A DNA stretch of 64,000 nt, taken from Actinomycetota bacterium (GTDB lineage: Bacteria; Actinomycetota; JAICYB01). The stretch lies in the NCBI GenBank assembly GCA_040905525.1, contig JBBDRJ010000013.1, positions 231,919 through 295,918 of the forward strand. Direction: 5' to 3'. A program made the translations under genes and the position numbers. A model generated the notes under the pieces. That model was not told the DNA's origin. It worked only from the letters and a program-made list of their open reading frames with translations, and did no database searches. The first letter of the stretch is position 1. Every line of letters starts with the position of its first letter. Positions 28,609 through 51,186 of this stretch are shown here, piece by piece.

Positions 28609-29607
28609 GTGAAGAGGATCATCATCGTTGCACTTTGTCTCGTCGCTGCTTCGTGCAGCCAGGGCGTGAGTGGAGCTCAGACCTACAACGTCGGCGTCGA
28701 CCAGGCGTCGCCCGAGGGGGAGAAGTTCCAGTACTCGGCCTACTACCCGGCGTCGGTCGCCGCTGCGCCCGGCGATGAGATCGTCTTCACCAACGACTCG
28801 ACCGAGGCTCCCCACACGATCTCGTTCGGCGTGGAGGCCGACCGCTCCAACTCGCCGCCCGTCGTCACCCCCCAGGGCGAGAATCCCGTCGTCTTCAGCC
28901 CCTGCTACACGCCCGAGGCTCCGACGGCCGAGCTCCTGGAGTGTCCCGACACCGACCTGCCCGAGTACAACGGCGAGGGCTTCTGGAACTCCGGGGTCCT
29001 GCAGCCGGCACCGGTGCCAGATGAGGCGGGGGCGAAAGAAGTCACCGTCCAGCTGTCCAACGACATCCCCGAGGGGAGCTACATCTACGTCTGCATCCTG
29101 CACTCGTTGATGGCCGGCACGATCGAAGTCGCCGAGGAAGATCGCATCTCACCCGACGAAGTGGACGAGGCCGGCGACGAAGCCGCGCGGGAAGGACGCG
29201 AAAGCTCCGAGGAGATCACCGAGCCGGAGGCCGAGCGCGAAGGGGACACCGTGACCGTGAGCGCCGGGTTCGGCGACCGCGTGGTGTCGGTCAACCGGTT
29301 CGCTCCCGCGGAGCTCGAGGTGGAAACCGGAACCACCGTGCAGTGGGTCGCGCGCAGCCCGTACGAGCCGCACACGGTGACCTTCGAGTCGACCTTCGAG
29401 ACGCCGAACGACGAGGGAGCCTTGGCGCCGGGCGGCGTCGCGTCCGGTGGCGAGTACACCGGCGGCTTCTCGAGCTCCGGGATCCTCGGTCCCGAGGGTG
29501 GGCCGTTCCCGTCCGGGCCTTTCGCGCTGAGGTTCACGGAGGCCGGTGCCTTCGAGTATTCGTGCGTCTTGCATCCCGGGCAGGTTGGGAAGGTCACGGT
29601 TACCTAA
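28609..29607 (+). CDS. Lipoprotein with two cupredoxin (type 1 copper) domains
   Basis: GTG start with RBS gggagg. Lipobox LVAASC. Domain 1: HTISF...YVCILHSLM. Domain 2: HTVTF...YSCVLHPGQ (Gln at the axial position). Confidence 0.7.
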   Translation: MKRIIIVALCLVAASCSQGVSGAQTYNVGVDQASPEGEKFQYSAYYPASVAAAPGDEIVFTNDSTEAPHTISFGVEADRSNSPPVVTPQGENPVVFSPCYTPEAPTAELLECPDTDLPEYNGEGFWNSGVLQPAPVPDEAGAKEVTVQLSNDIPEGSYIYVCILHSLMAGTIEVAEEDRISPDEVDEAGDEAAREGRESSEEITEPEAEREGDTVTVSAGFGDRVVSVNRFAPAELEVETGTTVQWVARSPYEPHTVTFESTFETPNDEGALAPGGVASGGEYTGGFSSSGILGPEGGPFPSGPFALRFTEAGAFEYSCVLHPGQVGKVTVT

Positions 29608-34975: not shown

Positions 34976-35584
34976 ATGCGACTTCTGATGGCGGCCGTCC
35001 TGCTGCTCGCTGCGGCCGGAGCATGCTCAACGGAAACGGCCGGTGAGGTCGTTCCCGTCGACATCATGTATGACCCGCCGCCGCTTGCTGCCGAGCCGTC
35101 ACCCTCGCCCACTCCGAGCCCCACGCCGTCACCGTCCACCGGGTCGGGCGGTAGATCGGGCGGCTCGCAAGCGGCCGCCGGACAGGGGTCGGGGCAGAGC
35201 ACCGTCCCGCGGATTTCGGCGCCGAAGGTGCAGTGCCCGACCGGATCGGTTACCGCGACCGCCAACACGATGCAGGTGCACGAGAACAAGATCGCGGGCT
35301 CGGAGCAAAGCCGGTGGGATGTCCTCGTCGGCGGCAATGCCACCAACGGGACGACGCGTCAGGTCGGCAACGTGCAAGTGCGCGTGGACATACGCGTCCC
35401 GAACGCCGCCGTCACGTCGGGCTCGGCGACCGTGTCCTCGGCCGGCCCGGGCAAATCGGTCAGATGGACGGATAACTTGAGCGTGGTGAGCGACGAGAAT
35501 CCGCAGTTCGAGCACGTCCACGTGAGCGTCAGCGGTTGGTCGTGGGGCGACCCCGCCATGGACGCCGCCTGCCCGCACGGCTGA
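34976..35584 (+). CDS. Hypothetical lipoprotein
   Basis: Signal peptide with lipobox LAAAGAC, followed by a P/S-rich linker. Confidence 0.5.
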   Translation: MRLLMAAVLLLAAAGACSTETAGEVVPVDIMYDPPPLAAEPSPSPTPSPTPSPSTGSGGRSGGSQAAAGQGSGQSTVPRISAPKVQCPTGSVTATANTMQVHENKIAGSEQSRWDVLVGGNATNGTTRQVGNVQVRVDIRVPNAAVTSGSATVSSAGPGKSVRWTDNLSVVSDENPQFEHVHVSVSGWSWGDPAMDAACPHG

Positions 35585-35622: not shown

Positions 35623-35994
35623 ATGCCCGACATATCCGAATCAGTCGCGTCCTACCAGGCCGCTTGGGGTGAATCCGACGAAGGCGCGCGCCGCTCTTTG
35701 CTCGATACGGCCTGGGCCGGCGACGGTCTCTACCTCGACCCGTCCGGCCGTGCCGACGGACGCGACGCGCTGATCGAGCACATCGGCGGATTCCAGAAGA
35801 CCTTCGCCGGGCACACGATGGAGCCGACCAGCGCGGTCGACGCTCACGACGGCTACCTGCGCTTCGGATGGCGGCTGCTGGATCCCGACGGCAAGCAGAT
35901 CCTCGAGGGCGTCGACTTCGGCGCCTACGACGACGCCGGCCGCATCACGCTGATCGTCGGCTTCTTTGGACCGTGGCCGGAGCTCGCGGTATGA
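35623..35994 (+). CDS. SnoaL-like/NTF2-like small protein
   Basis: About 123 aa of NTF2-like pattern. ATGA overlap with the downstream FAD oxidoreductase. Confidence 0.5.
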   Translation: MPDISESVASYQAAWGESDEGARRSLLDTAWAGDGLYLDPSGRADGRDALIEHIGGFQKTFAGHTMEPTSAVDAHDGYLRFGWRLLDPDGKQILEGVDFGAYDDAGRITLIVGFFGPWPELAV

Positions 35995-37409
35995 GTCACG
36001 TCCTCGTCCTCGGAGCCGGACCGTGCGGGCTCATGACCGCCATGCTGCTGGCCCGCGACGGGCACCGGGTGACCCTGCTCGAGCGCGATTCCGCCCCGCC
36101 GCCCGACGACGCCGCGTCCGCTGCCGGCGCCTGGGAGCGCAAAGGTGTCGCGCAGTTCGAGCAGGCGCATTTCATGCACGCCCGCTTCAGGCAACTCCTC
36201 GATGCCGAGCTCCCGAACGTGCGCGATGTGCTGAAGGAGTCCGGTGCCACCACGTGGAACCAGCTGGGTTCGCTCCCGCCGTTCATCGAGGACCAGCAGC
36301 CGCGACCCGACGACGACCGGTTCTGGACGATCACGGCGCGGCGACCGGTGCTGGAGGCGGCGATCGCTCACGCGGCGTTCCGCGAGCCGAGCGTGACGAT
36401 CCGGCGCGGGACCAAGGTTGCCTCGCTGCTGACGGGGGCCGAGGTGGTCTCCGGCGCTCCTCATGTGACCGGGGTGAGGACGCAGGGCGGCGAGGACATC
36501 GAGGCGGAGCTCGTCGTCGATGCGATGGGACGGCGGACGCCGATGCCCGATCTATTGAAGGCTACCGGCGGACGCCCGCCGGAAGCCGAGGCCTTCGACT
36601 GCGGCTTCACCTACTACACGCGGTACTTCAGATCCAGGGACGGCAAATACCCGGACATGATCGGCCCGCCTCTGGCCCCGCTCGGGACCATCAGCTGCCT
36701 GACGCTGCCCGCGGACAACCAGACGTGGTTCATCGTCCTGTTCACCAACTCGCGCGACGCTCCGCTCAAAGCCCTTAGGCACGCCGACAAGTGGGAGGCT
36801 GTAGTCCGCGCGGTCCCCTTCCAGGCGCACTGGCTGGAAGGGGAGCCGGTCAGCGGCGTGCTTCCGATGAGCGGCATCGTCGATGGTTTGCGCCGCTACG
36901 TGGTGGACGGTGCGCCCGTGGTGACGGGGATGGTTCCGGTAGCGGATGCATGGGCGTGCACGAATCCGTCCCTCGGACGGGGCGTGACGATGGGCCTGAC
37001 GCACGCGGTGCAGCTGCGCGACGCTGTGCGCAAAGATCTCGACGATCCGAAGAGGCTGGCCGAGTCCTTCGACGCGGTCACGACCACCGAGCTCGAGCCG
37101 TGGTTCCGAGCGCAGGTGCAGATGGACCGCGCGCGGTTCGCGGAGATGGACGCGCTGCGCGAGGGACGTGAGCCGCCACCGCCGCCCGACACCGAGGACG
37201 GCAGGCTGATGCGGGCGTTCCTTACCGCCGCTCCCTACGACGGAGATCTGTTCCGGGCATTCATGGAGTACGTGTCGAGCCAGTCACTGCCGTCCGAGAT
37301 CCTGAGTCGTCCTGGCATGGCCGAGCGGGCTCTCGAGGTGGCCGAGGGGAAGGAAGCCTTCGCGCCTCCGGCACCGGACCGCAGCGAGCTGCTCGCGCTC
37401 TTGTCCTGA
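35991..37409 (+). CDS. FAD-dependent oxidoreductase/monooxygenase-like (paralog A)
   Basis: N-terminal dinucleotide fold VLVLGAGPCGLMTAMLLARDGHRVTLLERD. GDAAH-like ADAWACTNPSLGRG motif. Confidence 0.75.
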   Translation: MSHVLVLGAGPCGLMTAMLLARDGHRVTLLERDSAPPPDDAASAAGAWERKGVAQFEQAHFMHARFRQLLDAELPNVRDVLKESGATTWNQLGSLPPFIEDQQPRPDDDRFWTITARRPVLEAAIAHAAFREPSVTIRRGTKVASLLTGAEVVSGAPHVTGVRTQGGEDIEAELVVDAMGRRTPMPDLLKATGGRPPEAEAFDCGFTYYTRYFRSRDGKYPDMIGPPLAPLGTISCLTLPADNQTWFIVLFTNSRDAPLKALRHADKWEAVVRAVPFQAHWLEGEPVSGVLPMSGIVDGLRRYVVDGAPVVTGMVPVADAWACTNPSLGRGVTMGLTHAVQLRDAVRKDLDDPKRLAESFDAVTTTELEPWFRAQVQMDRARFAEMDALREGREPPPPPDTEDGRLMRAFLTAAPYDGDLFRAFMEYVSSQSLPSEILSRPGMAERALEVAEGKEAFAPPAPDRSELLALLS

Positions 37410-37470: not shown

Positions 37471-38190
37471 ATGAGGATGCGGAAGGTCGTTCACGGGCTG
37501 CTGGTGCTGGGCATCGCCGGCGGAGCCCTGGTCTTCGGTGCCGGACAAGCGTCAGCTGAGGCTTGTCCCACCTTCACGGTGTCCGTGAGCCCGCCCATCG
37601 TCCAGGAGGGCGGCGAGGCAAGTGTCACCGTTAGCCGCCGCGGAGTCGGATTCAACTCCGTCGACCTGAACACGGTGAGCGTGTCGGCCACCGCCGGCAT
37701 CGACTTCGAATCCCTTGATCTGACGGTGCACTTCGGAAGTGAAACCTCGCGCGCTTTCGGCGTGGAGATCTTCGACGACGACGACAAAGAGGGAGAAGAG
37801 AGATTCAAGTTGCACCTGTCCAATCCGCAGGGATGCGAACCCGGCGACAATGATCTGGGCGGGGACAAGTCGGTGAAGATCGTAGCCTCAGACCAGTCGT
37901 CGGGGGGGACGCCCTCACCGACGTCGAGCCCCTCGCCGACGCCCGCACCGACCGCGACGGCGACGGCCAGCGCCTCACCATCCCCATCGCCGAGCCCGTC
38001 GGTCAGCCCGTCGCCTTCGCCGACTCCGACGCTTTCACCGACCCCACTGGCCACGTCGATCGCCGCCAGCGTTGACCAAGACGACGATGACGGGCTGGGG
38101 GGCCTGGCCATAGCCGGGATCGTGGTGGCGGCTCTGGCGCTGCTGGCGGGCACGGGCTTGCTCCTGCGGATCCGGCAGGATCGCCTATGA
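37471..38190 (+). CDS. Secreted Calx-beta domain protein with PT-rich linker and C-terminal membrane-anchor motif (paralog 1)
   Basis: Signal peptide ...ASAEAC. Calx-beta-like motifs VQEGGEASVTVSRRG, FGSETSRAFGVEIFDDDDKEGEERFKLHLSNPQGC. SP/TP linker. C-terminus DDDDGLGGLAIAGIVVAALALLAGTGLLLRIRQDRL. Confidence 0.7.
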   Translation: MRMRKVVHGLLVLGIAGGALVFGAGQASAEACPTFTVSVSPPIVQEGGEASVTVSRRGVGFNSVDLNTVSVSATAGIDFESLDLTVHFGSETSRAFGVEIFDDDDKEGEERFKLHLSNPQGCEPGDNDLGGDKSVKIVASDQSSGGTPSPTSSPSPTPAPTATATASASPSPSPSPSVSPSPSPTPTLSPTPLATSIAASVDQDDDDGLGGLAIAGIVVAALALLAGTGLLLRIRQDRL

Positions 38191-38885
38191 GCATGCGAAA
38201 GCTAGCCCGGGCGTCGCTGGTGGTCGGTGTGGTAGGGATGGCGGTGATCTTCGGCTCCCATAGCGCTTCCGCGGCCTGTCACTCGTTCACGATCGGCACG
38301 GTGTCGCCCAGCCCGGTGCAGGAGGGCGGGAAGGTGACGGTGACGGTCACCAGGGACGCCGGTGTCGCCGACTCGCATGTGGATATCGAAACTGTCGACG
38401 GAACCGCGAAGGCTGGGAGCGATTTCACGAAGCTGGACACCACGGTGAGCTTCACGGGCGGGACGACGTCCAAGAACGTGTCGGTGCAGACGACCAACGA
38501 TGCGACGATGGAGGGGTCCGAGACGTTCAAGCTGCACCTCTCGAACCCCGGTGGGTGCGCGCCGAACCCGAACTTCCAGCTCGGCCCGGACAAGACGGTG
38601 ACGATCGCGGCGAATGATCAGCAGGTGGTGCAGCCCACGCCTGAGCCGACGGCCGCTCCGACCGCGGCGCCGCCGGCAACGGCCTCGCCGAGCCCGTCGC
38701 CGTCGCCGTCGCCATCACCTTCGGCTTCGCCCTCGCCGTCGCCGACATTCACTCCGTTCCCGACGGCGACGCCGGGCGACGACGGGGGACTGTCCGGTCT
38801 GGGTATAGCGGGGATCATCGTCGGTGCGGGAGCGGTGGGGAGCTTGGCGGCGGTGGGCTTCTTCCGCTGGAGAGCCGGGCGCTAG
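38187..38885 (+). CDS. Secreted Calx-beta domain protein with C-terminal anchor motif (paralog 2)
   Basis: ATGA overlap with paralog 1. VQEGGKVTVTVTRDAG, VDGTAKAGSDF, FTGGTTSKNVSVQTTNDATMEGSETFKLHLSNPGGC. C-terminus GDDGGLSGLGIAGIIVGAGAVGSLAAVGFFRWRAGR. Confidence 0.7.
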   Translation: MSMRKLARASLVVGVVGMAVIFGSHSASAACHSFTIGTVSPSPVQEGGKVTVTVTRDAGVADSHVDIETVDGTAKAGSDFTKLDTTVSFTGGTTSKNVSVQTTNDATMEGSETFKLHLSNPGGCAPNPNFQLGPDKTVTIAANDQQVVQPTPEPTAAPTAAPPATASPSPSPSPSPSPSASPSPSPTFTPFPTATPGDDGGLSGLGIAGIIVGAGAVGSLAAVGFFRWRAGR

Positions 38886-38895
38886 GGGGACGAGG

Positions 38896-39612
38896 ATGCG
38901 AAAGCTCTTTTCTGCGGTGATGGTTGTCGGTCTGGCCGGGATGGTGCTGGTGCTCGGTGCCGGCTACGCGGCGGCCGACTGTCACCAGATCACGATCACC
39001 CGGACCCCGGCGACAGTGCAGGAAGGCAACAAGGTCGAAGTCCGGGTCGAGCGTGACGGGATCAACGGCAGGTCGGCATTTCGCGTTCGTTCCGTCGACG
39101 GATCGGCTAAAGGCGGTACGGACTATCCGAAGCTCGACGAGATCGTCGACTGGCCGAGCGGCGGCGACAAAGCGCACACGTACGTGTTGACGATCACCAA
39201 CGACACGGCGTCTGAAGGGGCCGAGACATTCTTCGTGCGGCTCTCGGAGGTGCATAACGTCCCGAACAACTGCGTGACGACGTTCGTCCCGGCGGACCGT
39301 CAGCGGACGATCACCATAGCGGCGAGCGATCAGAACATCGCGCAGCCGACACCGGCGCCCACGCCGACAACCACTGCGACGGCAACGCCGTCGGCTTCGC
39401 CGAGTGTTTCCCCGTCGGTCTCACCCTCGGTGTCGCCGAGCGTCTCGCCGTCGCCGTTCGAGACGTTCACGCCGTTCCCGACGTCGACGCCCGACGGTGA
39501 CGACGACGGTCTGTCGGGTCTGGCCATAGCTGGGATCGTCGTGGGAGCCGGAGTGCTCGGCGGCGGGGCCGTTGGGGCGCTCTGGTACTTCCGGAGACGC
39601 GCCGCCGGTTGA
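38896..39612 (+). CDS. Secreted Calx-beta domain protein with C-terminal anchor motif (paralog 3)
   Basis: RBS ggggga, then the internal ATG. VQEGNKVEVRVERDG, VDGSAKGGTDY, ITNDTASEGAETFFVRLSEVHNVPNNC. C-terminus DGDDDGLSGLAIAGIVVGAGVLGGGAVGALWYFRRRAAG. Confidence 0.7.
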   Translation: MRKLFSAVMVVGLAGMVLVLGAGYAAADCHQITITRTPATVQEGNKVEVRVERDGINGRSAFRVRSVDGSAKGGTDYPKLDEIVDWPSGGDKAHTYVLTITNDTASEGAETFFVRLSEVHNVPNNCVTTFVPADRQRTITIAASDQNIAQPTPAPTPTTTATATPSASPSVSPSVSPSVSPSVSPSPFETFTPFPTSTPDGDDDGLSGLAIAGIVVGAGVLGGGAVGALWYFRRRAAG

Positions 39613-39615
39613 CGG

Positions 39616-41043
39616 ATGGCTGAAGTCCTGGTCCTCGGCGGCGCCGTGTGCGGTTTGGCGACCGCGATGATGCTGGCGCGCGACGGTCACGACGTTACGG
39701 TGCTCGAGCGCGACGCTGCCGACGTGCCGGACACCGTCGACGCTGCGTGGTCCAGCTGGGAGCGCAAGGGCGTCCCGCAGTTCCGTCAGGCGCACGTGCT
39801 GTTCCCGCGCTTTCGCAAGCACCTCGAGGAGGAATTGCCCGACGTCAACGAGGCCTTCCTGGCCAACGGGGTGAACCAGCTGAGCTTCCTGGGCATCATG
39901 CCGCCGATGATCACCGACCGGTCGCCGCGCCCAGGGGACGACAAGCTGGTGTCGTTATGCGCGCGGCGTCCGTTCATGGACTGGGCGGTGACGCACGCGG
40001 CGCGAGACGTGCCGCGGCTGACGATCCGTCGGGGGGTTCAGGTGACGGAGCTGGTCACCGGAACCTCAGCGGTCGACTCGGTACCGCACGTGGTCGGCGT
40101 CCGCACGGCCGGCGGCGAGGAGCTGGGGGCCGACCTGGTGGTCGATGCCATGGGCCGCCGGTCGAAGACGGTGGAGTGGATCGGGGGTCTTGGCGGACCG
40201 CCGCCGTACGAGGAGGCGGAGGAGCCGGGGTTCACGTATTACTCGCGCTACTTCCGCGGGGATGCGCTGCCGCAGTACATGGGCCCGGTGGGGATGGAGC
40301 TGGGGACGATAACGGTCCTGACCTTCTGGTGCGACAACGGCACGTGGGGGATGGTGCTGAACACGTCGTCGGGCGATCAGCCGCTCAAGCAGCTGCGAAA
40401 GAACGACGTTTGGATGTCGGTAATGCGGTCGTGTCCGCTGCAGGCGCACTGGGCGGACGGGGAGCCGATCACCGACGTCATGCCGATGAGCGGACAGATG
40501 GACAAGTACCGGCGATTCGTTGTGGACGGCAAGCCTGTGGTGACGGGTCTGCTGGCCGTGGCAGACGCGTGGGCGTGCACGAACCCGTCCGCGGGACGTG
40601 GGCTGTCGGTTGGTCTGGGTCACGCGGTGGCGCTGAGGGATACGGTGCGGAAGCATCTGGGCTCGCCGGTGGAGTTGGCGCATGCGTTCGACGCGGTGAC
40701 CGAAGAGGAGTTCAAGCCCTTCTACTACGACCAGGTGCAGGCGGACCGGGCCCGGGTGGCGGCGATGGACGCCAACCGTGAGGGCCGGGAGCCGCCGCCG
40801 CCGAAAGGTGAGTACGCGCAGCGGAGGGTGGACCTGTTCGCGGGTGTGCCGTTGGATCCGGACATCTTCCGCTCCGCGATGTCGTGGCTGTCGTGCCTGG
40901 TGCGTCCGGACAAGATCTTGTGGGACGAGGAGCTGCTGGAGCGTTCACGCAAGGTTGCCGAAGACGCGGGAGTGGGGGCCGGGCCGCCGATGCAGATGCC
41001 GGGCCCGACGCGGGAGCAGCTGCTGGAGATCGTCGGCGGCTAA
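39616..41043 (+). CDS. FAD-dependent oxidoreductase/monooxygenase-like (paralog B)
   Basis: VLVLGGAVCGLATAMMLARDGHDVTVLERD, and ADAWACTNPSAGRG. Colinear with paralog A. Confidence 0.75.
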   Translation: MAEVLVLGGAVCGLATAMMLARDGHDVTVLERDAADVPDTVDAAWSSWERKGVPQFRQAHVLFPRFRKHLEEELPDVNEAFLANGVNQLSFLGIMPPMITDRSPRPGDDKLVSLCARRPFMDWAVTHAARDVPRLTIRRGVQVTELVTGTSAVDSVPHVVGVRTAGGEELGADLVVDAMGRRSKTVEWIGGLGGPPPYEEAEEPGFTYYSRYFRGDALPQYMGPVGMELGTITVLTFWCDNGTWGMVLNTSSGDQPLKQLRKNDVWMSVMRSCPLQAHWADGEPITDVMPMSGQMDKYRRFVVDGKPVVTGLLAVADAWACTNPSAGRGLSVGLGHAVALRDTVRKHLGSPVELAHAFDAVTEEEFKPFYYDQVQADRARVAAMDANREGREPPPPKGEYAQRRVDLFAGVPLDPDIFRSAMSWLSCLVRPDKILWDEELLERSRKVAEDAGVGAGPPMQMPGPTREQLLEIVGG

Positions 41044-42450: not shown

Positions 42451-42563
42451 GCAACCCCCTCTCCCTGTCTCTAGAGTCTCGCATCGAGCACGACTCGGCA
42501 ACGCTTAACGTCGCCCGCACGTTTGGGTGATCGAGGGCGGGGCTATGACTCCTGACGACCTGG

Positions 42564-43292
42564 ATGGGCGAGAACTGGGACCTGTTCAGGCACTCACGCG
42601 AGCGAGGGGGATCCATGACGCTCGACACGCATGTAGCGGATCGCGAGGACGAGCCCGCGATCTCGCTGTTTACGAAGGTCGTTGCCATCTTCGCCGTGGT
42701 CGGGGCGGGCCTCGGAGCGGCAACGCTCATCTTCCTGTGGGCGACAGGATTCTTCGATGCGACCGAGGCCGAGGGGCTCGACGCTCTCGGGGAGCAGTTC
42801 CTCGGCGGGATAGCCATCGCGACGGTGCTCGTCTTCGCTCTGCTCGTCGGGGTTGTATTGGCGGCGCTCGGCGGGATGCACGTAGCGAACTACGGGACGA
42901 GCCGTGGTGCGGCGGCGCTTGCCGGTGCCCTCGCCGGCGCCGTCGGGCACGTGGCGCTGGTAGCGGTTCTCGGGGCCATCCTCGTGTTCGGGATCGATGC
43001 GCTCACTTCCTCCACGGCGGACGAAGCGGTCCCGACGCCGACGCCGGTGGAGACGCAAAGTCCGGAAGAGCTCGCTTCGTGTCGAGAGTTGTTCGGACAA
43101 GACTCGCCGCTGTGCGTCGACCAAGCGGCGGAGGAGGCCGATACCGACGACGGGGACGACGATGCCGTGAGCTTCGAGGACGTCTCGAGGATCGGTCTCG
43201 GTCTGATTCCGGCCGCGCTCGTGGGCGGACTAACGGCAGCGATCCTTTTCCGTCGTCGGTACGGGCCGGAGGCTCACAGACGGATCGACTAA
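42564..43292 (+). CDS. Hypothetical membrane protein
   Basis: Four Gly/Ala-rich hydrophobic helices. The start is ambiguous (42564 or ATG 42615). Confidence 0.4.
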   Translation: MGENWDLFRHSRERGGSMTLDTHVADREDEPAISLFTKVVAIFAVVGAGLGAATLIFLWATGFFDATEAEGLDALGEQFLGGIAIATVLVFALLVGVVLAALGGMHVANYGTSRGAAALAGALAGAVGHVALVAVLGAILVFGIDALTSSTADEAVPTPTPVETQSPEELASCRELFGQDSPLCVDQAAEEADTDDGDDDAVSFEDVSRIGLGLIPAALVGGLTAAILFRRRYGPEAHRRID

Positions 43293-43553: not shown

Positions 43554-43802
43554 ATGACACAGCTCGTGGCCAGGATCCCCGATGAGGTGGCCAGGGCCCT
43601 GGACGATCTCGTCGCGTCGGGTGCCTTCGCTACGCGATCGGACGCGGTCCGCGAGGCCTTGCTGGAATTGCTCGATCGACATCGGCGGGGCGAAACCGCC
43701 CGGCGCATCGTCGAGGGGTATCGGCGACGTCCGCAGAGTGAGGACGAGATCGAGTGGGCCGAGGCAGCCACGGTCGCGATGATCGCCGACGAGCCGTGGT
43801 GA
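43554..43802 (+). CDS. Ribbon-helix-helix type II antitoxin
   Basis: The N-terminal IPDEVARALDDLVASGAFATRSDAVREAL is an RHH fold. GTGA overlap with the downstream toxin. Confidence 0.7.
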   Translation: MTQLVARIPDEVARALDDLVASGAFATRSDAVREALLELLDRHRRGETARRIVEGYRRRPQSEDEIEWAEAATVAMIADEPW

Positions 43803-44107
43803 TTCCGCGCCAGGGGGATGTCTGGTGGGCGGAGGCCGAGAACAAACGTCGTCCGGTCCTCGTCGTCACCCGGAGCGAAGCGATAGGGGTGCTGCGCTGG
43901 ATCGTCGTCGCTCCAGTCACGCGTACGATCCGCGACATCCCGACCGAGGTCAAGCTCGGGCCTGAGGACGGTCTCCGCGATGACTGCGCGGCGACGTTCG
44001 ACAACCTGCAACCCATCGGCCGGGCGTTTCTGACTGAGCGGATCGGCGCTCTTGGGCCGCGACGGGGCGAGATCTGCCGGGCCCTCGTGGCTCTCGCGGA
44101 CTGCTAG
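43799..44107 (+). CDS. MazF/PemK family toxin
   Basis: GTG start. The GDVWWAE...RPVLVVTRS motif is characteristic of PemK/MazF. Confidence 0.75.
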   Translation: MIPRQGDVWWAEAENKRRPVLVVTRSEAIGVLRWIVVAPVTRTIRDIPTEVKLGPEDGLRDDCAATFDNLQPIGRAFLTERIGALGPRRGEICRALVALADC

Positions 44108-44313
44108 GCAACTACCTGGGCGGCAAGTCCGCGTCCACGAAGCACAGAACGGCTGTGATCGGCGTCGGAGGGTTAGGCATCAATGTTCTGCGACATCAAG
44201 GGATGACGCGAAGGCGAGCGGTATTCATCGCGTCGATCGGCGGCGTCATTGGTCTAGCGGTTGCGCCGTGGGTTGGAGACGCCTGGCGAAGCTGAAATCG
44301 CCAGCTTAGTTGG

Positions 44314-44994
44314 CTAAGGGCATTGCTCTTCGTCCTTGACCGCGCCCAGGTCGATCTCTTGAGACTCTGGGACTTTCGTTCCCGCCGCCGGTTCTTGATC
44401 GCAAACCTTCCAGTTGTTATCGATGATTTGATTTCGGCCCTCTCTCTTCGCGTCATGTGACGTTAGGACGTACAGGCCTTCGGCCTGAAGTAGATCCTGC
44501 GCTTCCTGCAAGTCCATTCCGACGACGTTAGGCACTACGATCAACAGAGACTCGGTTGGTGTGGGCGTGGCAATGGGCGAAGAATCCACCGGGGCTTCAG
44601 TCGAAGGGGTAGCGTCGAACTTATCTTCGGCTCCGCAGCTCCGGTCAATCAGCAATCGGACGGCGTCGAGGGCTGCTCCCTCAGCTGGATCCTGATCACA
44701 CACGGTCCAGGCAGACTCATCGATCGTTCCTTGGGCGCCACCTCCGACGATTTCGATAGCGTCGCGATCGTTGAGCCCAACCTTGTTCAGGTTGCTCCTC
44801 GCAACGTCGAGCCGCTGCCCGGCGACGTTGGGCATCAGCTTGTCGATAGATCCTTCGTTGCTCGAACAAGAGGCAAGCAATGCGGCGATTGCCAAAGAGA
44901 GTGCGATGGCCCGCGCAATAGCTCCCCATGCAGAGTTCGTCTTCGCGCACTCGACGCCGCTAACCAAGCGAATTCGGCGTGATGTTCTTGACAT
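44314..44994 (-). CDS. Lipoprotein with two PASTA domains
   Basis: Lipobox LLASCSS. Two repeats, MPNVAGQRLDVARSNLNKVGL...VCDQDPAEG and VPNVVGMDLQEAQDLLQAEGL...VCDQEPAAG. Confidence 0.65.
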   Translation of the reverse strand: MSRTSRRIRLVSGVECAKTNSAWGAIARAIALSLAIAALLASCSSNEGSIDKLMPNVAGQRLDVARSNLNKVGLNDRDAIEIVGGGAQGTIDESAWTVCDQDPAEGAALDAVRLLIDRSCGAEDKFDATPSTEAPVDSSPIATPTPTESLLIVVPNVVGMDLQEAQDLLQAEGLYVLTSHDAKREGRNQIIDNNWKVCDQEPAAGTKVPESQEIDLGAVKDEEQCP

Positions 44995-45818
44995 CAACCG
45001 TCCGTGACGTCGATTGTCCATTTTCCGTCTGCGTCGATATCCAACCAATAAATCCCAGGTGTAACGCCCGTCGGCTTCGTTGCCGAGTGCGGAGCTAGAT
45101 CATTCGCGAGCAATTCCACCCGGTCTCCGCTTGCATCGTAAAGCCAGACGGAGCAGGTCCCTTCTGTCCCCACGCAATTGATCTTGAACGTCACCAAGCC
45201 GCCAGGCAGCTCAAAGGGCCCCTTCGAGCGTTGATCTGTGTCTTCAAAGCGCAAGGGGACACTGGGGCCCGCTCTGTCCCTTGGCTGTTCGATTACGACC
45301 TCCCAAGCACCGTCCGTGTCGACATCTAGTAGATAGGCGCCCGACTCATGGCCCCGGATAGTGCTCGCAACCAGTGGTGAGAAATCGTTCGCGATCAGTT
45401 CGATTCTTTCTCCCGAGGCGGCCGATAACACCCAGATCGAGCACGTGCCTTCGGCTCGGCAAGTCGTCTTGTACTGGACCAGTCCTGTCGAAAGCTCGAA
45501 CTTCGTCGACGCACTCTGGCCCGTGCCGCTCAGCGTTATCGGTGGAGGAGCTTGGATCGGATTGGGCGTATCGGAAAAGTCATCGTTGACCGCTACGGGA
45601 GCAGACGCCGTTGATGGAGGGGTGTAGAAATCGCCTCCGTATTCATAGCCTGGTCGCGGTGTCGGGCCAACCGTTGCCAATGGTCGCTGTTCACCAACCC
45701 GATTAGAATCGCCGGAGTTGCACGCGGCTATGGTCGCTGTCAGTAGAAGCAGACCAACGCGGTATGCGAGAACGACGTGCAAAGCGCCCTCCGCCGCCCC
45801 TAGTGGCTGGGGGACCAA
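44994..45818 (-). CDS. Secreted/lipoprotein with two internal ~90-aa repeats, unknown function
   Basis: Hydrophobic N-terminus ending IAAC. Repeats TCSIWVLSAASGERIELIANDFSP... and TCSVWLYDASGDRVELLANDLAP.... Confidence 0.5.
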   Translation of the reverse strand: MVPQPLGAAEGALHVVLAYRVGLLLLTATIAACNSGDSNRVGEQRPLATVGPTPRPGYEYGGDFYTPPSTASAPVAVNDDFSDTPNPIQAPPPITLSGTGQSASTKFELSTGLVQYKTTCRAEGTCSIWVLSAASGERIELIANDFSPLVASTIRGHESGAYLLDVDTDGAWEVVIEQPRDRAGPSVPLRFEDTDQRSKGPFELPGGLVTFKINCVGTEGTCSVWLYDASGDRVELLANDLAPHSATKPTGVTPGIYWLDIDADGKWTIDVTDG

Positions 45819-46012
45819 TCTAACAACTCAGTGTGCCTCTGGGCGGGCAGTGGACTAAGGCGCGATGCGACTGATGCTTTCACCGGTTGTTGATGATTTT
45901 CACCCTCATCGCCTTCGGACTTATGCCGTCTTGCGGCATCAAGGAATCATCCGTTGATGCGCCGTCATTAGCGCAACTCTGGGCGGGATACTCGGTGATG
46001 CTGACTTCGTCG

Positions 46013-46312
46013 CTACGAGCTCTTCCCGGTCCCTTCTGAGGAGCTATCAGCGCTTGAGCTGTCGCTCGACGCCGAGGTGGACCCATCGGAGGTAGACCCT
46101 CCAGTTGAACCGGCTCCCGGTGCGCCGGGTGCTTTCGGGTTGAATCCGGCGGCGTGTCCCTGTGGTCGACGCGGCGGTGCACCCCGTAACGGCGACCCCC
46201 GATAACCTCCACGCTTCTCGAAGTGCCTAGCGGCTTGTGTCGACTGTGGAGTTGCCGATGGTGGATCGCTCTTTGCAGGTTCAGCCATCTGTCTCTTCCT
46301 CTTCGTCTTCAT
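46013..46312 (-). CDS. Small basic/Ser-rich hypothetical protein
   Basis: An ORF in the low-GC stretch. Lys/Arg-rich N-terminus and Ser-rich tail. Weak support. Confidence 0.25.
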   Translation of the reverse strand: MKTKRKRQMAEPAKSDPPSATPQSTQAARHFEKRGGYRGSPLRGAPPRRPQGHAAGFNPKAPGAPGAGSTGGSTSDGSTSASSDSSSADSSSEGTGKSS

Positions 46313-46968
46313 CGTGAATGAACTCCAACACCTTCACTTCTTCCCAGCGTACCAACGCCGCTGATCCGATCTCGTCATAGCCGCCCTCGGTGTCTCCTTC
46401 GGCGAACGACCCATCCTCCAAGACGCGATACATCCGCTCGAGGTAGAAGTCCTGCGGTTCCTCCGGATATCCGGCCGCGTACGAGCTATCGGCGAAAAGC
46501 CCTCCTGCATATCGACCGTCTTTGAACTGGATCCGCACGACGCCTGTTGGTCTAGGTGAAAACAGGAAGTCCCAGGCTCTCGGCGCCGGGTCGCGCCCGA
46601 CGAGTACCCGCGAAAGTCCTGGCCATCGATGAATCGACAGGCCGGATACCGTCCCGAGTGCGATGGGAGCCACGACGTACGCGATCGGGACGAGCCACAG
46701 CCACCAAGGGACGTCGTGACCTTCCAATAGAGGGTTTCTGACTCTTCCCGGGCGTAATTAGAGGGTTGTGAATGTACGCAATCCACAAACGGTACGCGGG
46801 GTACGCCGCTGCTGAGAGGAAGATCGCGGACACGCCGACGAACCGCAAGACACGATCGGCAAGACCGATGCCCCACTGTCCGGCCTCACGTTCGAGAGAC
46901 CACGTGTAAAGGGCTCCGGGTAACACCGCCACCACGAACACGAACAAGGCAGTGAATGACTGTGGCAT
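46281..46968 (-). pseudogene. Membrane protein gene apparently split by a frameshift near 46735-46760
   Basis: A hydrophobic N-terminal segment (MPQSFTALFVFVVAVLPGALY... from the ORF ending 47151) is followed, one frame over, by LEGHDVPWWLWLVPIAYVVAPIALG... (ORF 46281..46727). The first frame decays into an Arg-rich out-of-frame-looking tail. Confidence 0.3.
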
Positions 46969-47064
46969 TTCGATCCTTCCCCAACACGAACGAGTGTACG
47001 AGTCGGTGCCGACAGCCTTGAAGGGATTGCGTGAGATCTGCGGCGGTCGCGGATAATCCGAGCG

Positions 47065-48984
47065 ATGCGTTCTCAGTGGGGGTGGGCCGGAACCGCTCGA
47101 GAGTTCCTCCAGTTCTCGCGCGACCTCTGGCTTCGCTCCCTCGAGGAGCACTGCGAAGCATTAGCCGCGCAGAGGCCCTCGCAGTCACAGCGCCGCGTCT
47201 GGATCAACGAGCACGAAGCCATGGCCAACGCTCTGCGCACGTGTTGCACGGCCGAGCCCGGCGCCCAGGACTGGGGCGTCGTCTTCGAGTACGAGCTACC
47301 GCTCGAGGGCGGCCGCCGTCCCGACGTCGTCGTTCTCGCCGGCGCAACGATCATCGTCTGCGAGTTCAAGGAGAACCCCCAGCACTTCGCCGCCCACTTC
47401 GATCAGGTCGAGGCCTACGCGCGCGACCTGTCCGAGTACCACGAGGCCAGCCACGGCCGTCGCGTCGTGCCGATCTTGGTGTTCGTCGGCACGGAGCCGG
47501 TGGCGGGCACCCGCGACGGCACGATCCTCACCGACGCTGCGGGGCTCGATCAGTACCTCATGGCCAACGCTTCAACGGGGACGATCGATCTCGACGCTTG
47601 GCTCGACTCCCCCTATGTTCCGTTGCCGACGTTGGTCGAGGCGGCCCGGAGCATCTTCCGGGAGGAGCCGCTGCCGCACGTGAAGCGCGCCGTCGACGCC
47701 GACATCCCCGGGACGCTCGAGCTCATCGATCGGCTCATCTCCGACACCGAGGGAGAGGACGGACGCGCGCTGGTCTTCGTGGCCGGCGTTCCCGGATCGG
47801 GGAAGACGCTCCTCGGCCTGCGCGTGGTGTACGAGCGTCCGGTCGCGCACGGCCGGGCCATCTTCTTGTCCGGCAACGGTCCGCTGGTGAAGGTGCTGCA
47901 GGACGCGCTGTCCGGTTCGCGCGGCCGCGGCAACGGACGATCAGCCGGACGGGCCTTCGTGAGGGATCTCCATCAGTTCATCAAGACCTACGGGATGGGG
48001 ACGAAGGTGCCGCGGGAGCACGTGATCGTGTTCGACGAGGCGCAGCGCGCGTGGGACCGCGGGTACATGGCGGCCAAGCGCGGCGTGACGAAGTCGGAGC
48101 CGGATCTCCTCGTTGAAGCGGGCGAACGAGTGGAGCGCTGGGCGGTGCTCCTCGGCCTGGTCGGCGAGGGTCAGGAGATCCACTCGGGCGAGGAAGGCGG
48201 GATCGGACAGTGGCGGGAGGCGGCGAAGTCCTCGCCCGCGGCGACGTGGCGGGTGTTCTGTCCTCCGCGGCTGGCCGATGAGTTCCACGGGCTCGAGGTG
48301 CAGACGCACGAGCGACTCGATCTGGATGTATCGCTGCGCAGCCGGCGTTTGGAGCAGCATCACAACTGGGTGAGTTTGCTGCTACAGGGGAGCCTTTCGC
48401 TGGCCGCACGGCAGGCCGCGCGAGTGTCGGCGACCGACGGGTGGGCGATGTATCTGACGCGCGACCTGGAGGAGGCGAAGGCGTACGTCCGGGCGCGTTA
48501 CGCCGAAGAGCCGGAGAAGCGGTTCGGGCTGATGGCGTCGTCCCACGCGCGCAACCTGCCGAAGTACGGCGTGCTGAATTCGTTCCTGGACACGAGGAAG
48601 GTGCGCGAGGCGCGCTGGTTCAACGCTCCGGCTGAAGATCCGATGTCGTCGAACGCGCTCGAGGTGCCGATGACGGAGTTCGGGTGCCAGGGTCTCGAGG
48701 TGGACATGCCGGTGGTGTGCTGGGGAAGCGACTACACCTGGGACGGCCGGGAGTGGTCGGCGAAGGCGGTCCGGCGGAAGTACCCGCTGACCGATCCGAT
48801 GCAGATCGTGAGGAACGCGTATCGCGTGTTGCTTACACGCGGCCGGGACGGATTCGTGGTCTTCATGCCGCCGGAGTCGGAGCTCGACACCACCGAACAC
48901 GCACTTCTGGCGGCGGGCGTGCGTCCACTGCCGGAGCCGATGGAGTTGGGGGCCGAAGTCGTGCTGGCGACAAATGGGGGCTGA
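47065..48984 (+). CDS. DUF2075-type ATPase (Schlafen group III / Nhi-like) with N-terminal PD-(D/E)xK/NERD-like nuclease module
   Basis: N-terminal VVFEYELPLEGGRRPDVVVL...IIVCEFK (D...ExK). Walker A VFVAGVPGSGKT, Walker B VIVFDEAQRAWD, and C-terminal YRVLLTRGRDGFVVFMP, typical of DUF2075. Confidence 0.75.
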   Translation: MRSQWGWAGTAREFLQFSRDLWLRSLEEHCEALAAQRPSQSQRRVWINEHEAMANALRTCCTAEPGAQDWGVVFEYELPLEGGRRPDVVVLAGATIIVCEFKENPQHFAAHFDQVEAYARDLSEYHEASHGRRVVPILVFVGTEPVAGTRDGTILTDAAGLDQYLMANASTGTIDLDAWLDSPYVPLPTLVEAARSIFREEPLPHVKRAVDADIPGTLELIDRLISDTEGEDGRALVFVAGVPGSGKTLLGLRVVYERPVAHGRAIFLSGNGPLVKVLQDALSGSRGRGNGRSAGRAFVRDLHQFIKTYGMGTKVPREHVIVFDEAQRAWDRGYMAAKRGVTKSEPDLLVEAGERVERWAVLLGLVGEGQEIHSGEEGGIGQWREAAKSSPAATWRVFCPPRLADEFHGLEVQTHERLDLDVSLRSRRLEQHHNWVSLLLQGSLSLAARQAARVSATDGWAMYLTRDLEEAKAYVRARYAEEPEKRFGLMASSHARNLPKYGVLNSFLDTRKVREARWFNAPAEDPMSSNALEVPMTEFGCQGLEVDMPVVCWGSDYTWDGREWSAKAVRRKYPLTDPMQIVRNAYRVLLTRGRDGFVVFMPPESELDTTEHALLAAGVRPLPEPMELGAEVVLATNGG

Positions 48985-49903
48985 TTGGTTGAAGGCGTAT
49001 GTAGCCGTCACGGACGGCGATTGGTATCGGTACTTGAGCCGGTTACCTGATCTCGACGAGGTCAACTTCTGGCAACCGAGTCCGAGCGGCGCGTTTCGAG
49101 CGGTCCAACCCGGAGAGTTGTTCCTGTTCAAGCTGCACCATCCCGAGAATTACATCGTTGGCGGTGGCTTCTTCGCCGACTACAGTGTGCTTCCGGCGAG
49201 TCTGACTTGGGAGTCGTTTGGCGAGAAGAACGGGGCAAGCAGCCTTGAAGATATGAAGTTACGGATCCGGAAGTATCGTCGATCCTCTGACCTAACAGAG
49301 GACCCTGATGTAGGTTGCATCGTCTTAGTACAGCCCTTCTTCTTCGATCGCAGAGATTGGATCAGTGCTCCGCTAAGTTTTGCGAAGAACATTGTTCGGG
49401 GGAAGACGTACGATTTCGAATCGCTCGAAGGACGCGCGCTGTGGCGAGACCTCGAGGCTCGACTCTTAGCCGTTCGTCAAGACGAATGGCAGGAGGTCGC
49501 GGCGCTCGGTGCTTTCGCTATGGTCCGTCGCAGGCTGGGCCAGGGCGCCTTCCGCGTCCTCGTAACGGACACCTATCGCCGCCAGTGTGCAATCTCCGGC
49601 GAGAAGGTGTTGCCGGTTCTTCAAGCCGCGCACATCCAACCGGTTGCCAGCGGTGGTTTGCACCGCATCGAGAACGGCCTTCTGCTTCGCTCCGATATCC
49701 ACACGCTCTTCGATCGTGGGTACGTGACGGTGACTCCGCGTTACGAAGTCAGGGTGAGCAATCGACTCAAGAAGGACTTTGCTGACGGCGAGTACTACGG
49801 CCAGTTCGATGGCCAAGGGATTTGGCTGCCAACCGCTGAGCAGGAACGGCCAGACGCGCAGCTTCTCGAGTGGCACTCCGACACAGTTTTCCGTGCGTCA
49901 TAG
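48974..49903 (+). CDS. HNH endonuclease (HNH_2-like) with ~190-aa N-terminal recognition-like domain
   Basis: C-terminal CAISGEKVLPVLQAAHIQPVASGGLHRIENGLLLRSDIHTLFDRGY (HNH). Overlaps the DUF2075 gene by 11 bp. Confidence 0.75.
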   Translation: MGADWLKAYVAVTDGDWYRYLSRLPDLDEVNFWQPSPSGAFRAVQPGELFLFKLHHPENYIVGGGFFADYSVLPASLTWESFGEKNGASSLEDMKLRIRKYRRSSDLTEDPDVGCIVLVQPFFFDRRDWISAPLSFAKNIVRGKTYDFESLEGRALWRDLEARLLAVRQDEWQEVAALGAFAMVRRRLGQGAFRVLVTDTYRRQCAISGEKVLPVLQAAHIQPVASGGLHRIENGLLLRSDIHTLFDRGYVTVTPRYEVRVSNRLKKDFADGEYYGQFDGQGIWLPTAEQERPDAQLLEWHSDTVFRAS

Positions 49904-49914
49904 GGTCGGGTAGG

Positions 49915-50625: not shown

Positions 50626-50760
50626 ACCTTCGTCATCGGCGAAGGTGCAGTGGAACTAAACGGTCCGGCTGATGCCCAGCTCCACCACTTGCCGAACAAA
50701 GGAACGAGCTCGATCTCCATGGAAAGCCGGGCGTCCGGCTCCGGAGACGTAAGCCAATTA

Positions 50761-51177: not shown

Positions 51178-51186
51178 CGACCGACA

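Follow-up and report, generated by a model that had tools for sequence, protein, structure and literature searches.

Among the closest described counterparts of the protein tails considered here are the GlyGly-CTERM/rhombosortase and PGF-CTERM/archaeosortase A systems of Proteobacteria and Archaea, in which a C-terminal transmembrane (TM) segment of secreted proteins opens with a motif of small residues and is followed by a basic cluster, and in which the motif is kept across very diverse passengers within one genome. LPXTG/LAXTG signals likewise combine a hydrophobic stretch with a basic tail, and the use of LAXTG is common in Actinobacteria. Rhomboids, which Actinobacteria also encode, prefer small residues and helix-destabilising TM tops. 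Regarding the extracellular domain, the nearest knowns are the Calx-beta domains of NCX1 (CBD1), Drosophila CALX (CBD1) and integrin beta4. Among single-pass membrane anchors, rat CEACAM1 has a tandem-GxxxG dimerisation TM (GLSEGAIAGIVIG; PMC3250453).

Three tandem genes, designated g1, g2 and g3, were analysed in the window, that is, the whole 64 kb stretch of DNA under study, whose source is an uncultured Acidimicrobiia-like actinobacterium. The genes, their predicted parts and their neighbours are given below.

34976..35584, + strand: conserved lipoprotein, lipobox LAAAGAC, no Pfam match
35868..37409, + strand: a paralogue of the FAD-dependent oxidoreductase at 39616..41043 (match at E 1.5e-148), lying ahead of g1
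37471..38190, + strand: g1, 239 aa, predicted Calx-beta type I membrane protein (Calx-beta E 2.4e-10; alternative start ATG 37477)
Parts of g1, + strand: signal peptide 37471-37557, domain 37558-37896, Pro/Ser/Thr-rich (PST) stalk 37897-38091, TM 38092-38166, basic tail 38167-38187
38187..38885, + strand: g2, 232 aa, predicted Calx-beta type I membrane protein (Calx-beta E 6.1e-17; alternative start ATG 38193)
Parts of g2, + strand: signal peptide 38187-38273, domain 38274-38621, stalk 38622-38783, TM 38784-38864, tail 38865-38882
38274..38282, + strand: predicted mature N-terminus A-C-H of g2, from family conservation
38784..38864, + strand: 'motif' region of g2, GGLSGLGIAGIIVGAGAVGSLAAVGFF, a single Gly-rich TM helix with GxxxG / small-xxx-small repeats
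38896..39612, + strand: g3, 238 aa from ATG, predicted Calx-beta type I membrane protein (Calx-beta E 3.7e-13)
Parts of g3, + strand: signal peptide 38896-38976, domain 38977-39333, stalk 39334-39507, TM 39508-39591, tail 39592-39609
38977-38985, + strand: predicted mature N-terminus D-C-H of g3
39616..41043, + strand: FAD-dependent oxidoreductase, 3 bp downstream of g3

The preliminary description of these genes as secreted tandem Calx-beta paralogues is correct. With phmmer, g2 matched g3 at E 2e-56 and g1 at E 1.9e-52 (identity 40-54%), and g2 is the paralogue nearest to the wider family. The Calx-beta domain scored 40.9, 62.2 and 50.0 bits in g1, g2 and g3 against a gathering cut-off of 27 for Pfam PF03160, while the consensus first drawn for it stands only in part: g1 lacks DGTAKAGSD and has VSVSATAGIDF instead, and in g3 'GC' is missing and the second Cys is displaced (NNC). 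The linker is indeed rich in Pro, Ser and Thr (54-65 aa, 72-81% P+S+T+A), and all three proteins end in Arg-rich sequence (RIRQDRL in g1, RWRAGR in g2, RRRAAG in g3). The ATGA overlap said to couple the genes is present between g1 and g2, but in both a further in-frame ATG follows two codons later (37477 and 38193); because this later start yields MRK..., matching the homologues, the overlap may not be the true junction. The gap before g3, put at 11 bp at first, measures 10 bp. The listed open reading frame of g3 begins further upstream, at GTG 38824.

The AlphaFold model of g2 is a 7-strand beta sandwich with pLDDT >90 over residues 31-130, and its top Foldseek matches in the PDB were 2dpk, 3e9t, 3gin and 3fq4 (E 6e-8 to 3e-6), the best being NCX1 CBD1 (2dpk; E 6.4e-8, 34% identity), with CALX CBD1 and the integrin beta4 Calx-beta domain also matched. 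The fold is thus shared with these domains at a TM-score, normalised to the target, of 0.72-0.84 and an identity of <=34%. Five acidic residues that are invariant or nearly so in the family, namely E46 (with a one-residue offset), D79, D105, E109 and E112, align with NCX1 E385, D421, D447, E451 and E454 when the structural-match alignment is mapped by hand onto NCX1 numbering, and the corresponding positions are kept acidic in the g1-g3 family. In NCX1, E385, D421, D447 and E451 are named Ca2+ ligands, and E454 lies at the Ca1 site and is replaced in the E454K mutant (PMC3386913). The D498-D500 cluster of NCX1 is only partly retained, the family having a single invariant Asp (D144). From this residue pattern the single Calx-beta domain probably binds Ca2+. 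It differs from that of the NCX exchanger, which sits in a cytoplasmic regulatory loop, in being a single domain, predicted to be extracellular, of a bacterial type I membrane protein, and the family adds to the known Calx-beta domains a Cys pair and an N-terminal x-C-H.

As first described, each of the three proteins begins with an AxA signal peptide followed by a Cys, comprising MRK, a 19-residue hydrophobic core (Kyte-Doolittle 19-residue mean, KD19, 1.9-2.4) and AxA. In an alignment of 60 family sequences A27 is nearly invariant and A29 invariant, the Cys after AxA is invariant and the following His nearly so; AxA-x-Cys-His occurs in 46 of the 60 members, which makes this N-terminal element the strongest signature of the family. 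The conserved positions before the Cys are the AxA of signal peptidase I, and cleavage is predicted after it, which would leave A-C-H and D-C-H on g2 and g3 and E-A-C-P, without His, on g1. A lipoprotein (Lgt/LspA) reading of the conserved Cys was considered and rejected: the lipobox [LVI][ASTVI][GAS]C is not matched, position -2 is E in g1, position -1 is D in g3, and across the family the Cys can be preceded by A, S, V, G or D. The N-terminal Cys (Cys31) is probably paired in a disulfide with the Cys that follows 'NPGG' (Cys124). With x-Cys-His almost invariant, the predicted mature N-terminus is ATCUN-like.

At the other end of the proteins, the conserved tail residues (GLSGLAIAGIVV) form the N-terminal half of the sole C-terminal hydrophobic segment, which spans 25-28 uncharged residues, reaches KD19 values of 2.0-2.5 in g1-g3 and is followed directly by the R-rich end. 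The tail had been described as a motif and then a hydrophobic helix, and this division into two elements does not survive: the Kyte-Doolittle 19-residue maxima start within the motif (IAGIVV..., LGIAGII...), and in the g2 AlphaFold model, whose tail is of low confidence (pLDDT 44-67), helix 208-231 begins at A208, inside 'IAGI'. The spacing of small residues is that of packing motifs, with GxxxG at GGLSG and GIIVG in g2 and at GIVVG, GVLGG and GGAVG in g3, small-xxx-small only in g1, and 3-6 small-xxx-small pairs per TM overall. Nine Gly fall within 27-28 residues in g2 and g3, the g1 TM being more ordinary and Leu/Ala-rich. The finding is an ordinary one, because the shared tail 'motif' opens a membrane-spanning helix of a common, glycine-rich type.

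The behaviour of the tail within the family points the same way. Relatives were sought by a genome scan with an alignment of 7 close sequences. The motif G[LIT][SG][GA][LG]x[IV]AG[IV] is kept in 15 of the 60 family members and absent in 45, while the TM and basic tail are kept in essentially all 60. Tail identity (36-72%) is about that of the domain (23-74%), and when the window is set against the related locus L001 the tails cluster by orthologue and not by genome; gene conversion as the source of tail similarity was therefore rejected. One observation counts against a plain anchor: in the sub-clade of the window the first ~14 residues of the tail resemble one another more closely than those that follow, also across paralogues that split before the divergence of the window and L001, which argues for some constraint on this stretch; TM packing is proposed as its explanation. 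The preliminary fallback of a plain conserved tail anchor is the description that fits, with a TM and basic tail family-wide and the motif as the start of the TM helix.

The same segment is found in unrelated proteins. A word-indexed search with the tail profile returned mostly short fragments, among them ...DDGGLSGGAIAGIVIG...K/R segments from a fish, a cestode, Anaeroplasmataceae and others, and an exhaustive profile search was hence added, which gave 1354 cluster representatives at E<=1e-3. Among the best 136 of these 1354, more than 10 residues follow the match in 109 and more than 30 in 86, and the Pfam families comprise podoplanin (37), Giardia VSP (29) and ErbB1 TM (16), further eukaryotic Asp protease, Ig and WSC, and Calx-beta in just 4. 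The three commonest (PF05808, PF03302 and PF21314, respectively) match via a ...GAIAGI... TM segment, the Giardia VSP TM beginning GAIAGISVAV...; they differ from g1-g3 in being eukaryotic, many having a longer cytoplasmic part or ending differently (VSPs in CRGKA). The tail motif is therefore neither lineage-specific nor specific to the C-terminus, occurring in eukaryotic and bacterial single-pass proteins, mostly with cytoplasmic sequence after it.

A close parallel is rat CEACAM1-4S, whose TM (GLSEGAIAGIVIGSVAGVALIAALAYFLY; PMC3250453) has a start near-identical to that of g1-g3. Over the first 13 positions (GLSEGAIAGIVIGSVAG...), g3 is identical at 10/13, g1-g3 range from 8 to 10, and the family member P0007 reaches 12/13. 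Pfam family PF27998 is listed for P0007. CEACAM1-4S and g1-g3 also agree in their GxxxG / small-xxx-small spacing and in having, towards the cytoplasmic end, an aromatic residue with basic residues beyond it. CEACAM1-4S is, however, a eukaryotic type I protein whose ectodomain and kingdom are unrelated to those of g1-g3, so the resemblance is read as convergent and not homologous, and the dimerisation is one described for CEACAM1.

Taken together, g1-g3 are best read, with a probability of roughly 0.8, as type I single-pass membrane proteins with an ordinary GxxxG-type anchor and no dedicated sorting enzyme. The Sec signal peptide would be removed by signal peptidase I after AxA, and the single Calx-beta sandwich, probably pinned by the N-terminal Cys disulfide and probably Ca2+-binding, would stand outside the cell on its stalk of 54-65 Pro/Ser/Thr/Ala-rich residues. 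Attachment would be through one Gly/Ala-rich TM helix, stopped on the cytoplasmic side by Arg in keeping with the positive-inside rule (N-out, C-in), and the anchor would be retained uncleaved. D-D-G-L-S-G-L-A-I-A-G-I-V-V would then be an acidic/Gly cap and the first turns of the TM helix, with GxxxG / small-xxx-small packing motifs, a widespread and convergent way to begin a type I TM helix and not something that a dedicated sorting enzyme recognises. This helix start may promote helix-helix association, possibly among g1, g2 and g3.

Four other explanations were weighed against the ordinary anchor. The one that survives best, though it is unlikely, is that the very Gly-rich, helix-destabilised TM is cut by a general rhomboid-type protease and the Calx-beta ectodomain is shed. 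The high Gly/Ala/Ser content of the TM speaks for it, as do the substrate preference of rhomboids and their occurrence in Actinobacteria. Equally Gly-rich GxxxG TMs such as that of CEACAM1 nevertheless work as stable anchors, the more ordinary, Leu/Ala-rich TM of g1 fits such shedding poorly, and no rhomboid gene was found in the window or the inspected neighbourhoods.

A related and quite improbable reading is that in this Acidimicrobiia-like lineage the acidic-GLSG-x-AIAGI helix start is recognised by an intramembrane or juxtamembrane enzyme (rhomboid-like or another protease, encoded elsewhere) that releases or re-attaches Calx-beta and cupredoxin ectodomains. Bacterial proteins with passenger domains other than Calx-beta do end in this tail, the cupredoxin-domain proteins P0054 and P0217 being examples. 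If the reading were true, sorting or shedding would depend on a signal that passes for an ordinary GxxxG transmembrane helix.

More doubtful still is the candidate raised at the outset, a new lineage-specific tripartite sorting signal at which an exosortase-, archaeosortase- or rhombosortase-like enzyme cleaves the protein and transfers it to the envelope. The tail superficially has such a layout, the motif is kept in the three paralogues and in the L001 orthologues, and the cupredoxin-domain proteins share the tail as such a signal would predict. The GlyGly-CTERM and PGF-CTERM motifs also lie at the TM start, which is consistent with this idea and, by the same token, makes the tripartite layout alone non-discriminating. 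Against it, the motif is missing in the 45 of 60 members that keep the TM and RRR, and eukaryotic proteins commonly have the segment, as do TM helices in the middle of a protein, places out of reach for an enzyme of this kind.

Searches for the signal and its enzyme gave the same answer. A scan of NCBIfam sorting-domain models over whole proteins and isolated tails at E<=10 returned nothing relevant, only noise: MYXO-CTERM reached 8.4 bits on the tails against a cut-off of 20 (E 2.7); there was no PEP in the last 60 residues and no match to the PEP-CTERM model TIGR02595 at E<=10; GlyGly-CTERM had no model match at E<=10 in whole proteins or tails, GG standing directly before LSG in g2 only; and no PGF occurs in the g1-g3 tails. 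Other bacterial carriers have tails that reach the LPXTG, GPS-CTERM and Loki-CTERM models, below cut-off and only via the generic TM and basic part. A search for further carriers with the tail profile in the window and 15 related loci gave significant matches to family members with one exception, found in L010 (E 5e-5), where the tail is a generic TM plus RRR; all other matches were noise. The open reading frame at 42549-43292, with a C-terminal TM and RRR, was set aside as a carrier because it encodes a multi-pass membrane protein. No sortase, rhomboid or exosortase was found in the 64 kb window, among the open reading frames on either side of the L001 genes or in L016-L019, whose neighbourhoods were annotated with Pfam, a scope of 64 kb of the source genome and about 20 kb around five relatives. 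Unlike the GlyGly-CTERM and PGF-CTERM systems, g1-g3 thus lack a model match, conservation of the signature residues in the family and a cognate enzyme in the regions searched. The proposal of a lineage-specific processed signal with other carriers and a co-occurring processing enzyme is not upheld.

The weakest explanation, a degenerate class E sortase signal in which L-A-I-A-G of g1 and g3 replaces LAXTG ahead of ~19 hydrophobic residues and RRR and the protein becomes linked to peptidoglycan, draws on the fit of LAIAG to L[PA]x[TSA]G (3/5 LAXTG positions), on the hydrophobic stretch and basic tail that follow and on the common use of LAXTG by Actinobacteria, and is barely credible given that the scissile Thr is missing, the pentapeptide varies (LGIAG in g2, LDIAG in the L001/L016 g3 orthologues, GAIAG or GAVAG in other members), the window tails match none of the NCBIfam LPXTG_anchor, LAETG and LAVTG models (related tails doing so below cut-off via the TM and basic part) and the 64 kb window holds no sortase gene.

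The neighbouring genes add a syntenic context. The oxidoreductase at 39616..41043 is probably co-transcribed with g3, judging from its position, and a relative of it follows the three Calx genes directly in L001 and after an extra 295-aa gene in L016. L001 comes from the MAG CAWBKS01 and L016 from ERZ25039516. The upstream oxidoreductase copy is absent at that position in both L001 and L016; in L001 the Calx genes are immediately preceded by a counterpart of the lipoprotein, and a 209-aa gene takes that position in L016. The oxidoreductase gene was not seen around L002-L008, nor did the neighbourhoods of P0010, P0012 and P0028 contain it. A functional link between the Calx genes and the oxidoreductases was considered and left as synteny, since only L001 and L016, which are closely syntenic, have the oxidoreductase after the Calx genes.

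Overall, g1-g3 represent a lineage-restricted and so far uncharacterised family of small surface proteins with a Calx-beta domain in uncultured Actinomycetes/Acidimicrobiales, which joins many bacterial Calx-beta proteins and as an addition matters little in itself. The tail carries a caution: an acidic/Gly cap followed by GLSG-x-AIAGIV-xG and a basic tail is a convergent, kingdom-wide type I anchor and is not to be read as a sorting signal. The more interesting point lies at the other end of the proteins, where the near-invariant x-Cys-His, if real, could make members of the family surface metal-binding proteins.

Three tandem Calx-beta paralogues had been proposed for this part of the window, and the open reading frames, all on one strand, bear this out:

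37471–38190, + strand, ORF of g1, the first Calx-beta gene
38187–38885, + strand, ORF of g2, the second
38896–39612, + strand, ORF of g3, the third

Pairwise identities of 40–54% and phmmer matches of g2 to g3 (E 2e-56) and g1 (E 1.9e-52) mark the three, on their sequences, as clear paralogues, and all three score above the gathering threshold of Pfam Calx-beta. Their products share an MRK-hydrophobic-AxA N-terminus, a Cys, a domain of ~115 aa, a linker (54–65 aa, 72–81% Pro/Ser/Thr/Ala), an acidic/Gly patch, an uncharged stretch of 25–28 residues and an Arg-rich end; the layout of the preliminary description (AxA signal peptide with Cys, Calx-beta domain, Pro/Ser/Thr linker, hydrophobic segment, Arg-rich end) is seen in all three proteins. 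The gap ahead of g3 measures 10 bp and not the 11 bp first given. Between g1 and g2 an ATGA stop/start overlap, described earlier as coupling, is indeed present but maybe incidental: a second in-frame ATG two codons into g1 (37471/37477) and g2 (38187/38193) yields the MRK... start of g3 and database homologues, so the actual junction may be a different one. In g1, an AGGAG box abuts the first ATG.

By both HMM and fold tests, g1–g3 are Calx-beta domain proteins. An AlphaFold model of g2, built from 25 family sequences, consists of a seven-strand beta sandwich (pLDDT >90 over residues 31–130), a disordered linker and a C-terminal helix (208–231), and its Foldseek matches in the PDB include NCX1 CBD1 (2dpk; E 6.4e-8, 34% identity), Drosophila CALX CBD1 and the integrin beta4 Calx-beta domain. 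In our own mapping to NCX1 numbering, the conserved D79, D105, E109 and E112 (g2 numbering) align with D421, D447, E451 and E454, and the conserved E46 with E385 at a one-residue offset. Since E385, D421, D447 and E451 are Ca2+ ligands of NCX1 CBD1 and E454 is located at its Ca1 site (PMC3386913), Ca2+ binding by the domain is likely.

Judged from the family alignments, conservation peaks not in the tail but where the signal peptide ends, in AxA-x-Cys-His:

38262–38282, + strand, AxA-x-Cys-His site of g2 (A27-S-A-A-C-H32), alignments A2 and A8
38968–38985, + strand, AxA-x-Cys-His site of g3, same alignments

The exact signature occurs in 46 of the 60 family members; the Cys is invariant and the His is present in 50, having been lost in g1 and its orthologues. 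A lipobox reading of this Cys was ruled out, because the conserved Ala at −3/−1 are those expected for signal peptidase I cleavage and the residue preceding the Cys varies among members (Asp in g3). A second Cys, after 'NPGG', is nearly invariant across the family, isolated beta-bridges occur at positions 30 and 125 of the g2 model, and a C31–C124 disulfide can reasonably be inferred.

The tail of g1–g3 (a motif ending IAGI(V/I)V, a hydrophobic helix and an Arg-rich end) had been put forward as a candidate lineage-specific processed sorting signal, or else as a conserved tail anchor. The latter is favoured, a C-terminal TM with basic residues being kept by essentially all of the 60 members, and our core reading is an uncleaved type I anchor without a dedicated sorting enzyme (probability about 0.8); a novel dedicated signal is disfavoured by anatomy, conservation, specificity and comparison with known systems and enzymes. 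The residues, TM and Arg end of the proposed tripartite tail are present, but motif and TM form one element: the 25–28-residue uncharged stretch includes the motif, the 19-residue windows of top hydrophobicity start at 'IAGIVV...' or 'LGIAGII...', and the modelled g2 helix starts at A208, within 'IAGI', so that the motif is the first half of a single TM helix. The motifs of GlyGly-CTERM and PGF-CTERM also abut the TM, hence anatomy alone does not exclude such signals.

The pattern G[LIT][SG][GA][LG]x[IV]AG[IV] is kept in only 15/60 members (TM starts elsewhere include SAPAIAGVV, NNNVALLAG, GFPWLPVAAV and LSPWLIGIAL), which argues against an enzyme recognition site, as this would drift last. 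Between the orthologues of the window and L001, the closest related locus, tail and domain have diverged at about equal rates (72% and 74% identity, respectively, for g2); the tails of these loci cluster by orthologue, which rules out recent gene conversion. The helix start is better conserved within the window's sub-clade, and GxxxG occurs in g2 and g3 and small-xxx-small pairs in all three; tentatively, this conservation might most simply reflect TM packing through GxxxG, possibly among the three co-expressed paralogues.

Lineage specificity was not upheld. A word-indexed tail-profile search returned ...DDGGLSGGAIAGIVIG...(K/R)n in many metagenomic fragments as well as in a fish, a cestode and Anaeroplasmataceae, with precomputed Pfam matches to Giardia VSP and podoplanin, and an exhaustive HMMER tail search of 1.84 billion representatives (E<=1e-3) returned 1354 proteins. 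Among the best 136 of these 1354, more than 10 residues lie beyond the match in 109 and more than 30 in 86; those with long downstream sequence are internal TM helices, in bitopic proteins with cytoplasmic domains. Pfam content of the same best 136 comprised podoplanin (37), VSP (29), ErbB1 TM-juxtamembrane (16), eukaryotic aspartyl protease (7), Ig domains, WSC and BIM1-like, with Calx-beta in only 4. The rat CEACAM1-4S TM GLSEGAIAGIVIGSVAGVALIAALAYFLY matches g3 at 10/13 first positions and the family member P0007 at 12/13; it is described as tandem-GxxxG, and its double Gly-to-Leu mutants lose dimer-sized complexes (PMC3250453). Giardia VSP TMs, starting GAIAGISVAV..., are likewise predicted to oligomerise. 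The anchor of g1–g3 is probably a generic type I GxxxG anchor. The ends ...GLSGGAIAGIV(I/V)G...KKKK of low-G+C, Firmicutes-like secreted proteins (P0238, P0245, P0056, P0061, P0312), some extended by repeated ...SFADL(I/V)A(I/V)FKKK, look like the same anchor by sequence, and none scored above cut-off with curated NCBIfam sorting models.

Readings in which the tail is cleaved or sorted are, taken together, improbable. Other bacterial ectodomains do end in the same tail, as a sorting signal would predict: the metagenomic cupredoxin/plastocyanin-domain proteins P0054 and P0217 carry a Pro/Ser/Thr stalk, Gly-rich TM and basic tail like the Calx family. In g2 and g3 the TM is so rich in Gly that it could moreover be a rhomboid substrate, and the coverage here is a small part of each genome. 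Besides the sparse retention of the motif and its frequency in internal TM helices, the scans for known systems oppose a dedicated sorting signal. NCBIfam at E<=10, run on whole proteins and isolated tails and including curated CTERM and sortase sorting domains, gave none in g1–g3 beyond MYXO-CTERM, which scored 8.4 bits where the cut-off is 20; in other bacterial carriers, the tail aligns to sorting models through the TM and basic part only, below cut-off. The defining motifs of LPXTG, PEP-CTERM, GlyGly-CTERM, PGF-CTERM, MYXO-CTERM and lipoprotein classes were tested and are absent, so g1–g3 do not belong to them. 'LAIAG' in g1 and g3 resembles the LAXTG sortase signal but has no Thr, and LGIAG, LDIAG or GAIAG stands in paralogues and orthologues. 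As to a co-occurring processing enzyme, no sortase, rhomboid, exosortase or archaeosortase was found by Pfam among the window's main ORFs (about 45), and none was seen in five related neighbourhoods.

Other carriers of the tail were sought by tail HMM in the window and 15 related loci; the significant matches all belong to the family except for a single generic TM + RRR tail in locus L010 (E 5e-5). The window's two cupredoxin-domain proteins match neither the tail HMM nor a C-terminal-anchor pattern scan, whose sole other plausible ORF has no Pfam match and is unrelated to the Calx family:

10444–10854 and 28609–29607, cupredoxin-domain proteins
42549–43292, + strand, multi-pass membrane protein with acidic stretch EEADTDDGDDD, then last TM and RRR

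Separately, an ORF of locus L002, from an actinobacterial MAG (19824–20414, − strand), ends ...AEPPSTLALITGMIAFPIVAGATAVLAVRRRRQALVA, reaching the locus end, and looks PEP-CTERM-like (P-P-S-T-L-A-L, TM, RRRR), an ending unusual in Actinomycetes.

About 53 homologues of the same architecture (200–270 aa) were found, all unnamed; the genome hits are in MAGs that carry the labels uncultured Actinomycetes, Acidimicrobiales, Acidimicrobiaceae and Microthrixaceae. Neighbouring features are as follows:

34976–35584, + strand, conserved lipoprotein, lipobox LAAAGAC (L001 counterpart 8535–9182; L016 gene at that position 7733–8362)
35868–37409, + strand, FAD-dependent oxidoreductase, upstream copy, paralogue of the downstream one
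39616–41043, + strand, FAD-dependent oxidoreductase, downstream copy, 3 bp after g3
L001 11497–12909 and L016 11788–13320, FAD oxidoreductase relatives, each located after the Calx triplet of a syntenic MAG

L001, on a 2.67 Mb contig, is syntenic with the window (DNA ligase, enoyl-CoA hydratase, lipoprotein, three tandem Calx genes, FAD oxidoreductase), and L016 has the same block with an extra 295-aa gene ahead of the oxidoreductase; the shared three genes indicate that triplication predates these lineages. The lipoprotein has a PS-rich linker, a C-terminal ...HVHVSVSGWSWG...CPH and no Pfam match; in L001 its counterpart, and in L016 a 209-aa gene, directly precedes the Calx genes, and in the window the additional oxidoreductase copy separates it from g1. 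The flanking oxidoreductases are cytoplasmic and paralogous (E 1.5e-148 to each other), with a best NCBIfam match, QhpG-like, far under cut-off. Given the 3-bp spacing, the Calx genes look co-transcribed with the downstream copy. More distant family members occur singly, in unrelated neighbourhoods where no FAD oxidoreductase was found; the association is synteny in close relatives only, and any functional link may be no more than putative.

Further along the window lies a probable defence island (43754–62811), in and beside a lower-G+C stretch (0.59–0.64 at 44–52 kb):

43754–44107, MazF/PemK toxin
47065–48984, Schlafen-like helicase (PADLOC PDC-S41, E 3e-139)
52865–53362, HTH regulator
54827–60010, DEAD/MZB helicase, 1727 aa (DruE, E 3e-91)
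59956–62811, SNF2 protein, 951 aa (DpdE, E 1e-257)

Overall, on the uncleaved-anchor reading, Sec would export the chain, with cleavage after AxA, and the Calx-beta sandwich would fold extracellularly, probably with Ca2+ and a disulfide. Between domain and membrane, the Pro/Ser/Thr/Ala stalk would act as a spacer that, from its length and composition, would extend into the wall or across it and may carry glycans, while the Gly/Ala-rich, Arg-stopped helix would keep the protein membrane-bound. Though uncharacterised and restricted to its lineage, the family is a known sort of protein. Signal peptidase cleavage would leave a predicted mature N-terminus X-Cys-His, which matches an ATCUN Cu(II)/Ni(II) site in spacing and may serve as a lead.
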